64,000 bases of DNA from an uncultured Burkholderiaceae bacterium (GTDB taxonomy: Bacteria; Pseudomonadota; Gammaproteobacteria; Burkholderiales; Burkholderiaceae_C). The notes below the pieces were generated by a model, which was given only the letters and a program-made list of their open reading frames with translations, did not search any database and was not told the origin of the DNA. The stretch spans positions 18,163 to 82,162 of the forward strand of contig CAYZPX010000001.1 in assembly GCA_964480105.1 (NCBI GenBank). Reading direction: 5' to 3'. Of this stretch, positions 11,903 through 13,140 are shown piece after piece (positions within the stretch are counted from its first letter, which is position 1; every line of letters starts with the position of its first letter). The position numbers and the translations under genes were made by a program.

Positions 11903-12655
11903 CTACTGCAATGTCGTCGTCATTCCAGCTTGGCGCTGCAGACGGGTCATCTCGATGACATCGCTGATGCCGCTGATGACCAAGCTCTCTCGGCGCGACG
12001 ATTCTTTGTCGCGGCGGTTGTCCAGCACCACCAGCGTCTTTCGGTGGGCGTTCTCTGGGTTTGCCTTGATGTCGATCAGCTTGTGAATCAGTGCGCTGAC
12101 GGCTGCATGGTGCAGGCCCACAGCGGCCACCAGCAGCCCGTCAATTCCAAAGGTGAACTCGTGCAACTTGCCCGTGACGCCCTCAATCTTTGGCTGACGA
12201 TCCAACTTGCCGCCAGGCTTCCATGCGGTCAGGCATTGCGCCACTTCCTCAATGAACAGCGACGTTTCTGCTGCGATGCCGGCATGGCTTGACTCCCAGC
12301 GCACCAGCTCCATTGCCGCCCCAATGTAGCGCGCAAACCCTTGCGGCGCGGCATTGGGGCTGCTCCAAACCTCAAGAACTCCGTCTTTGGTGAAGGCGCC
12401 GCCGTGCTGCTCTGCGGCCGTGCTCAGAAATCGCGTTTGCGTGGCATTGCGCAGGCCAAGGCCTCGCCCCCTGAAGTGCAGGTAAAAGCCGCCGTCGTCA
12501 AAAAATCGCACGCGCGACCCTACGCGTTCCACGAAAACAGGCACCTCGTCCCCGTCACTGAAGACGAAGGGGGTTTCAATCAGGGCAATCTGCCCTTGAT
12601 CGTCAAGAGGATGGCAAGAAAAGCCGATCAGGTCTGAAATTTGGCTGCAAATCAT
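11903..12655 (-). CDS. unknown protein, third gene of the cI operon (possibly DUF1828 plus DUF1829-like, from memory)
   Basis: 250 aa, with a GGGGG Shine-Dalgarno inside the end of the upstream gene. The N-terminal ...IETPFVFSDGDEVPVFVER..VRFFDDGG and C-terminal GVTGKLHEFTFGIDG resemble those prophage DUFs. Not verified. Confidence 0.8.
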   Translation of the reverse strand: MICSQISDLIGFSCHPLDDQGQIALIETPFVFSDGDEVPVFVERVGSRVRFFDDGGFYLHFRGRGLGLRNATQTRFLSTAAEQHGGAFTKDGVLEVWSSPNAAPQGFARYIGAAMELVRWESSHAGIAAETSLFIEEVAQCLTAWKPGGKLDRQPKIEGVTGKLHEFTFGIDGLLVAAVGLHHAAVSALIHKLIDIKANPENAHRKTLVVLDNRRDKESSRRESLVISGISDVIEMTRLQRQAGMTTTLQ

Positions 12656-12660
12656 GGGGA

Positions 12661-13140
12661 CTACCCCCTCAATTCAAAATGTTCCGGGTCTGCCGCTGGC
12701 GGCACAAATTGGATGCCAGTGCGCAAAGAAAAGTGATCCATGACTTTGGCAAATGTCCACTGGGACCAGTGGGTATCACCTGCTTCTCGCTGGTCCCCAA
12801 AGTGCTCATGCGGTCTTGCGTGTGCATCCTTTAAGGGGCGCTTGGTCTGCCGAATATCCAGCTGATAGACCCGCTCAAGGCCCCATGGATGTTGAAGGAA
12901 GACACTGAATTTGTAAAGGACCACCCCGGTCTTTGGGCTCCGGCGGTAGATCAACTCGACCAGCATTTTGGCGCTGACCCCATCGCCTTTTAGCAGCCCG
13001 CCGGAGCAGCTCCATGTGTCGGGCTGCTGCTTCTCGGGGTGCCAGCATTCGATGTCTTCGCACCGAAGCGTTTGGCCCAGCAGGCGCTGGGCTTCTGCAA
13101 AATCAACGTCGTTCACAGCTTGCGCCCATTCCAGCACCAC
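12661..13140 (-). CDS. unknown protein, second gene of the cI operon
   Basis: 159-aa ORF from GTG 13140. An in-frame GTG at 13116 overlaps the cI stop (GTGA) and would give 151 aa. No TM segment and no recognised motif. Confidence 0.75.
   Translation of the reverse strand: MVLEWAQAVNDVDFAEAQRLLGQTLRCEDIECWHPEKQQPDTWSCSGGLLKGDGVSAKMLVELIYRRSPKTGVVLYKFSVFLQHPWGLERVYQLDIRQTKRPLKDAHARPHEHFGDQREAGDTHWSQWTFAKVMDHFSLRTGIQFVPPAADPEHFELRG

Follow-up and report, generated by a model that had tools for sequence, protein, structure and literature searches.

What is the function of the two genes that follow the phage repressor gene in this stretch of DNA from an uncultured Burkholderiaceae bacterium? The stretch of 64,000 nucleotides (nt), all of which we call the window, has a G+C content of 61% and is a temperate phage or prophage. 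Its cI-type repressor gene is followed on the same strand by two small genes, here named A and B, which an earlier note made from the sequence alone had put forward as a candidate lysogen-expressed defence or exclusion cassette. The best explanation of the observations below is that A and B make up one module of two proteins, which is autonomous and horizontally mobile. As to what the module does, our leading hypothesis is that it is an anti-phage or exclusion module expressed in the lysogen; this is a candidate function only, to which we assign about an even chance. The argument depends on the following features (coordinates are those of the window).

13814..13113, minus strand: cI-type repressor gene, 233 amino acids (aa), with a helix-turn-helix (HTH) and an S24 self-cleaving peptidase domain; it opens the operon
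13116..12661, minus strand: gene A, encoding a soluble protein of 151 aa (159 aa from the alternative start GTG 13140)
12655..11903, minus strand: gene B, encoding a soluble protein of 250 aa, with an N-terminal DUF1828 and a probable, diverged C-terminal DUF1829
11882..11864, minus strand: predicted intrinsic terminator AACCCGCCTCGCGCGGGTTTTTTT, with a 7-bp G+C-rich stem, a loop of 5 and a T7 tail
11794..11766, minus strand: PL-like promoter, TTGACT-17-AATAAT, 10 of 12 matches
11766..11837: OL-equivalent region, made up of the PL-like promoter and three operator-like sites (11769, 11794, 11824)
13853..13881, plus strand: PR-like promoter, from the promoter scan, facing the cro-like gene
13815..13881: OR-equivalent region, with operator-like sites at 13815, 13827, 13840 and 13863 and the PR-like promoter
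13888..14100, plus strand: cro-like HTH gene, an open reading frame (ORF) of 70 aa, divergent from cI

The repressor matches Pfam Peptidase_S24 (E-value, hereafter E, 1.5e-15), along with HTH_31/HTH_19, and the PHROGs family phrog_4, transcriptional repressor (E 1.5e-39); a cro-like gene identical to that of the window bears HTH_3 in another locus (L003). The junction between cI and A reads AAGCTGTGAACGAC, in which GTG 13116 overlaps the cI stop codon as GTGA. This GTG is the real start of A: nearly all homologues are about 150 aa long and begin with M-N/S-D-V/I, and gene calls in public assemblies already include the identical protein of 151 aa. A ends in TAG, and the ATG of B follows 5 nt further on, preceded by the Shine-Dalgarno sequence GAGGGGG. 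The GTGA overlap, the 5-nt spacing and the Shine-Dalgarno sequence had been described in the earlier note, and each is confirmed.

The surrounding signals place the pair in the slot that rexA and rexB occupy in phage lambda, again in agreement with the earlier note: A and B lie on the cI strand between the OL/PL and OR/PR sites. Operator-like ATAGGAAAnCCTAT sites form two clusters only, 11769-11837 and 13815-13876, and these bracket exactly cI, A and B. The pattern has 17 matches in the window where 3.8 are expected, a number reached by none of 100 shuffles. The promoter scan returned two promoter-like sites in all, the PL-like and the PR-like ones, and none inside the cassette on either strand; for cI itself, whose promoter is expected within 13815..13881 on the minus strand, it found no site. 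From cI to the start of B there is no terminator-like site in the terminator scan, and its two weak internal matches, both inside the B ORF, are taken as chance. The terminator at 11882..11864, which like the early-left promoter beyond it had been anticipated in the earlier note, is predicted to end the cI-A-B transcript. Neither protein has a transmembrane segment, as had also been claimed (maximum 19-residue Kyte-Doolittle values of 0.73 for A and 1.58 for B).

A and B are inherited together. Whether homologues co-occur was among the checks suggested in the earlier note, and we find the pair to be strictly conserved as such: A directly adjoins B in about 50 fetched loci, with a single locus (L026) in which an intact A is followed by a decayed remnant of B. 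The order is always A then B, frequently with a 4-nt overlap, including in close relatives of the window. Adjacency holds in 3 GenBank phages, in 12 of 12 IMG/VR loci, in all 5 species-representative genomes and in each of the 9 metagenome loci that extend far enough. The pair is also present in Burkholderia phage phi644-2 (gp48/gp47), in Pseudomonas phage P7869, and in prophages of Helicobacter pametensis, Cupriavidus, Eoetvoesiella and B. multivorans. Even the remotest A members that were looked up (P0221, P0212, P0210 and P0195) are followed by B. The homology of distant A proteins is not circular: phi644-2 gp48 is recovered (E 7e-6) by a profile from which they were left out, and gp48 in turn finds the Helicobacter protein (E 7e-14).

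The pair most often stands behind a repressor. The dominant order is cro (divergent), a cI-type repressor, A, B and the early-left genes. In each of the 12 IMG/VR pair loci, the two genes are preceded on their own strand by an HTH and/or S24 repressor, and the order of repressor, A and B recurs in P7869 and in the Helicobacter pametensis, Cupriavidus and Eoetvoesiella prophages. Repressor-linked pairs thus range over prophages of Burkholderiales, Pseudomonas and Helicobacter, and the adjacency to repressors that the earlier note asked about is found in many unrelated prophages.

The pair is nonetheless not a fixed companion of such repressors. Among 61 IMG/VR loci with relatives of the window's cI, the pair is found in one and a divergent version in one more, and 59 lack it; related cI loci are usually without the pair, which is thus accessory cargo. 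The very divergent version (L033, 5685-7622) stands behind a cI that is 68% identical to that of the window. Its slot holds a signal-peptide/lipoprotein-like gene of 190 aa, followed by an A-like gene of 170 aa, in which T-H-R-H-I-W aligns to P-H-E-H-I-G (hhalign E 0.0024), and a B-like gene of 258 aa (E 2e-9), whose start overlaps the A-like stop. PADLOC recognises neither of these two proteins. This locus suggests allelic diversification of the module. The converse is seen in L006 (1012-1722), where an identical pair (B is 100% identical) lies behind a 236-aa cI with a P22_Cro-type cro alongside. The N-terminal DNA-binding part of that cI differs from that of the window's cI (13113-13814): immunity specificity has been swapped and the A-B cargo kept. 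The G+C content at third codon positions is 0.64 in A and 0.70 in B, against 0.77 in cI. In phi644-2, gp46-49 have been described as a phage-specific, lower-GC, probably acquired region without assigned function (Ronning et al., PMC2920897).

Six IMG/VR prophages (L010, L011, L012, L014, L016 and L017) carry an extra gene between cI and the pair, at about 3970-4540. It encodes 140-230 aa with a hydrophobic N-terminus and a lipoprotein-like signal. Because such a gene can stand between cI and the pair, the slot evidently accumulates several cargo genes.

The pair also occurs away from repressors, in part beside restriction-modification genes:

L020 416-7208, L024 3119-7202 and L097 1675-4991: restriction-linked loci (Limnohabitans, Rhodoferax and a metagenome contig)

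The Limnohabitans pair comes after an HTH-M78 regulator, a type III mod (methylase) and res (ResIII helicase), in this order, with glmS adjoining. In Rhodoferax and the one metagenome contig, the stop codon of an MmeI-family restriction-modification enzyme overlaps the start of A. Other repressor-free contexts comprise insertion sequence (IS) transposases and ordinary chromosomal genes.

Residues 28-115 of B match Pfam DUF1828 (PF08861; E 9.6e-8, 32.7 bits against a cut-off of 22), and all 17 aligned B homologues do likewise. DUF1829 (PF08862) is matched in the C-terminal half of 6 of the 17 full-length homologues (best E 1.4e-6), and a precomputed PF08862 annotation is present on Burkholderia and Cupriavidus homologues; window B itself has no DUF1829 match at E<=1. 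Because of the matches in the six homologues, we conclude that the architecture of B is probably DUF1828-DUF1829. The resemblance of the larger protein to the DUF1828/DUF1829 pair, which the earlier note had offered loosely, is real. B also matches phrog_1960 (E 7.4e-37) and, among PADLOC models, PDC-M24B (PDLC04539), the second component of a defence candidate (E 1.6e-9, 35.7 bits, residues 22-220 against profile positions 27-228 of 255); other B-family members match this model down to E 6e-15. The 83 relatives of B found by profile are 204-255 aa long, nearly all 246-255, excepting two fragment matches to the N-terminal part only, and none is fused to another domain. A tblastn search of B against plasmids gave no match.

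The AlphaFold model (AF2) of B has two alpha/beta domains (predicted local distance difference test, pLDDT, 83.3; predicted TM-score, pTM, 0.52). Foldseek matches to the PDB are weak: R2 endonuclease, Bax1 and Card1 appear at E 0.009-0.16 with query TM-scores (TMq) of 0.19-0.33, and the list mixes restriction-endonuclease-like domains with small GTPases and thioredoxins, so it is not relied on. Profiles of the whole protein and of its C-terminal domain gave chance-level matches only against the PDB. Within the family, D34, D53, H60, E121 and D195 are invariant, and D54, K192, D212 and R214 nearly so.

The A family is rare. There are 26 close homologues of about 151 aa, and a profile search of 1.84 billion representative proteins yields 187 clusters at E<=1e-3, almost all of them single-domain proteins of about 150 aa. 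Window A has no match in Pfam, NCBIfam or PADLOC and only a marginal one in PHROGs (phrog_2017, E 7e-4); 38 diverse members give no consistent Pfam match either, and the family has no Pfam entry. The AF2 model is of high confidence (pLDDT 91.7, pTM 0.88); in it, four long strands run antiparallel, residues 103-112 make a hairpin, and the C-terminal part is helical. Foldseek finds no fold match for it in the PDB (best E 0.11), and in BFVD it finds one uncharacterised family member (TM-score 0.84) and nothing else. The sequence profile of A against the PDB gives chance-level matches only.

R82 and H103 are invariant throughout the A family, while W25, Y84, Q85, H105, G107 and F129 are nearly invariant and H99 is conserved in its main branch. 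These residues define two motifs, R82-x-Y84-Q85 and H99-x3-H103-E-H105-x-G107, the second of which lies in the His-rich segment that the earlier note had pointed out in the smaller protein. Judged from conservation, the His cluster together with the Arg, Tyr and Gln looks like a metal or catalytic site. Three more specific assignments were rejected. A is not an ImmA/IrrE-like (M78) anti-repressor metalloprotease, since it has H-E-H-x-G instead of HEXXH and does not match Peptidase_M78; a cupin or LAS-type metalloenzyme has no fold support; and in the candidate His-Me finger (beta-beta-alpha, 103-119) the helix lacks a conserved metal-binding Asn, His or Asp.

In one metagenomic protein (P0189, 229 aa), the initial 87 residues come from an A homologue and are continued by N-terminal sequence from a B homologue. 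This chimera is probably a deletion or frameshifted pseudogene of an A-B pair.

We propose the following role for the module. In the window prophage it would have been placed behind cI and would be transcribed from the repressor maintenance promoter, with translation by coupling, through the GTGA overlap with cI and then the 5-nt gap with its strong Shine-Dalgarno sequence. Because the operon is designed around this coupling to cI, we predict that both proteins are made continuously in the lysogen, where they would protect it against other phages. Beside restriction-modification genes, they would instead protect a non-lysogenic host. A and B may form a complex in the cytoplasm, one of them sensing infection and the other acting on a target that is a nucleic acid or a nucleotide. 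The conserved acidic clusters of B (D34, D53-D54, D195, D212) lie within its two alpha/beta domains. The module recurrently attaches itself to genes with constitutive expression, its start codon overlapping their stop.

We favour defence or exclusion because the two genes are inherited together, occupy a rexAB-like slot and are present or absent among related phages, because a divergent allele sits in the slot of L033 and other copies are linked to restriction-modification genes, and because B is a distant relative of a protein in a defence candidate of PADLOC. Homology to lytic-cycle functions, which the earlier note had regarded as fatal to the idea, was not found: in Pfam, PHROGs, NCBIfam and the PDB, nothing links either protein to phage structure, replication or lysis.

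It is important to emphasize the observations that weigh on the other side. We infer lysogen expression of A and B from their position, and we likewise infer their physical interaction, any enzymatic activity and a function against phages. Neither protein has a detectable nuclease, NTPase, TIR, Sir2, protease or pore domain, or any other known effector domain. The structural matches of B to PD-(D/E)xK nucleases are weak (E >= 0.009, TM-score <= 0.33), and K192, D195, D212 and R214 do not form the canonical PD-(D/E)xK arrangement. The chromosomal sample consists of 5 species-representative genome loci, and restriction-modification neighbours are present in only 2 of these. The three Duganella loci adjoin a CHASE-GGDEF gene and other loci adjoin an ATPase, with no defence context. 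PDC-M24 is a computational candidate only, our literature search found no mention of it, and PADLOC would not call the system in the window because A fails the PDC-M24A model. The same search found no functional study of the A family or of the B (DUF1828/DUF1829) family.

One alternative is that the pair is lysogenic-conversion cargo serving host physiology unrelated to phages, whether metabolic, stress-related or concerned with nucleic-acid housekeeping. On this view the slot would simply be a permissive and expressed place for insertion. It holds other cargo in the form of the lipoprotein-like genes (L010-L012, L014, L016, L017 and L033), and several of the chromosomal contexts are unrelated to defence. 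However, the family is rare and almost confined to prophages and mobile contexts, it is associated with restriction-modification operons, and B is related to a family that PADLOC flags as a defence candidate. We think this alternative unlikely.

It could also be that the pair modulates the switch between lysis and lysogeny, sensing a signal and altering the stability, cleavage or operator occupancy of cI, or controlling induction, instead of acting on other phages. By far the commonest context, just downstream of S24 repressors and often translationally coupled to them, would suit such a role, as would two soluble, cytoplasmic proteins without a recognisable effector domain. However, the pair is also found free of any repressor, behind restriction-modification genes and next to IS elements and housekeeping genes; it is joined to unrelated cI/cro types, as in L006, and it is missing from 59 of the 61 loci with related repressors. 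Such dispensability and portability would not be seen in a core component of the switch, and we consider this explanation rather improbable.

Finally, the pair might be a toxin-antitoxin-like addiction module that stabilises the prophage or island, with one toxic protein and another that neutralises it. The small size and tight coupling of the two genes speak for this, as does their constant co-inheritance on mobile elements, and the idea would partly overlap with the defence reading in that many such pairs double as abortive-infection systems. We consider it very improbable, given that Pfam, NCBIfam and PADLOC show no toxin or antitoxin family match, that the cassette has neither a DNA-binding antitoxin domain nor a promoter-like site of its own and is coupled instead to an upstream gene such as cI or MmeI, and that the intact A beside a B remnant in L026 implies that A alone is not lethal.

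Returning to defence, a more specific form of the hypothesis can be stated, which we put forward tentatively and with the expectation that it may well fail. A and B would be a so far unrecognised anti-phage system in which A has a fold absent from the PDB, with H99, H103 and H105 together with R82, Y84 and Q85 forming a metal-dependent catalytic or ligand site, and the module, being promoterless, would dock by translational coupling onto constitutive genes such as those of repressors and restriction enzymes. If the defence reading is true, DUF1828 and DUF1829 would join the families involved in defence, along with one protein family that has no Pfam entry or solved structural relative. The rexAB slot would then be used alike across prophages of Burkholderiales, Pseudomonas and Helicobacter, and PADLOC and DefenseFinder would gain a model for the undetected A component. 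The reading is directly testable, in that the cultured phages P7869 and phi644-2 carry the pair behind or near their immunity genes.

The region beyond the PL-like promoter holds a separate feature. For 1.1 kb, up to a transfer RNA (tRNA) gene, tRNA-Arg(TCT), there is no credible ORF, and gene callers leave the equivalent stretch of L003 empty. The features concerned are these:

about 11420-11285, 11290-11131 and 11054-10954, minus strand: three tandem RNA-like units, all within the stretch that lacks ORFs
10567-10643, minus strand: tRNA-Arg (anticodon TCT) encoded by the phage, just beyond the RNA units and followed by the first confident early-left ORF (10457..10149)

Each RNA unit consists of a closing stem, a hairpin AAUGCGCRGGCUGAYGCGC, a variable insert of 20-170 nt and a hairpin AAAGCCGGAGAUCAGCACCGGCC; in copy 1 the insert holds a tRNA-like T-arm. 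The loops GCUGA and UCAGC of the two hairpins are complementary. At least 120 contigs of IMG/VR contain a 19-mer taken from the second hairpin, and the unit is present in 132 GenBank phages, including those of Klebsiella, Escherichia (HK620 and Stx phages), Salmonella, Pseudomonas and Aeromonas as well as phi644-2. Across 46 distinct scaffolds, 97% of cells pair, compared with 27-46% in slid controls, and on every measure the observed value exceeds what any of the 500 shuffles attains. Two-sided changes are seen in 8 of the 8 closing-stem pairs and in 4 of the 5 first-hairpin pairs. The pairing between the loops is invariant and thus falls outside the covariation test, and conservation of the second hairpin is biased because that hairpin served as the search pattern. 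The unit has no match in Rfam 15, even at E<=1, and its sequence was not found in the literature; it is possibly an undescribed phage RNA family.

In HK620 (L225, 1501-1590), the unit has the late promoter pR'/qut on one side and the tQ terminator on the other, and given this position it is predicted to be part of a short, constitutive late-leader transcript. In two other loci (L138 and L114), an intrinsic terminator of its own follows the unit, and in three (L105, L110 and L133) the unit stands among phage tRNA genes on the same strand. A close relative of the window (L004) lacks about 457 nt corresponding to window positions 10955-11412, which is nearly all of the three units. This suggests loss or gain of the array in one piece, for which recombination between direct repeats may be responsible. 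The unit is not linked to A and B: it occurs in 4 of 49 pair loci (phi644-2 and three of the window's lineage) and in none of the 61 cI-related loci.

The leader at 11441-11761 on the minus strand, just after the PL-like promoter, is 78-88% identical at the DNA level in phage contigs that otherwise differ (L038, L034, L087/L088, L017 and L076), with no ORF called. Possible explanations are a small gene under conservation and an RNA site of the antitermination type.

It remains to compare A and B with known systems. Lambda rexA and rexB likewise form a pair that follows cI on its own strand inside the immunity region, between OR/PRM and PL, with a terminator before PL. By analogy, this suggests that the cassette resembles rexAB in being made in the lysogen. 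However, there is no match to Rex proteins in PADLOC, Pfam or PHROGs, and gene sizes and order differ. Lambda RexB is a polytopic membrane protein, whereas neither A nor B has a transmembrane segment. The position is likewise reminiscent of BstA and of the prophage-mediated defence cassettes of mycobacteriophages, which are accessory genes beside the repressor; the lysogen expresses them, and related phages differ in them. The protein families differ, however, and no homology was detected by PADLOC models.

Domain content leads to two further systems. DUF1829 is present in DS-6B, the non-kinase partner of the validated HipA-kinase system DS-6/HipAD (PMC13092281). DS-6B is like B in carrying DUF1829, but it combines this domain with DUF3037 and not with DUF1828, and the HipA-like kinase partner is absent from the pair in the window. 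The closest known system to A and B is PDC-M24. The first component sets them apart, in that window A has no PADLOC match (E<=1) and 37 of 38 diverse A members have no match to PDC-M24A (E<=0.1). Even so, phi644-2 gp48 matches PDC-M24A weakly (E 0.023) over the H-x-H and C-terminal region, and PDC-M24B is homologous to window B at the scores of a distant relative. Like A and B, PDC-M24 consists of two adjacent genes, and these have the same sizes and the same order (the A profile has 151 positions and the B profile 255).

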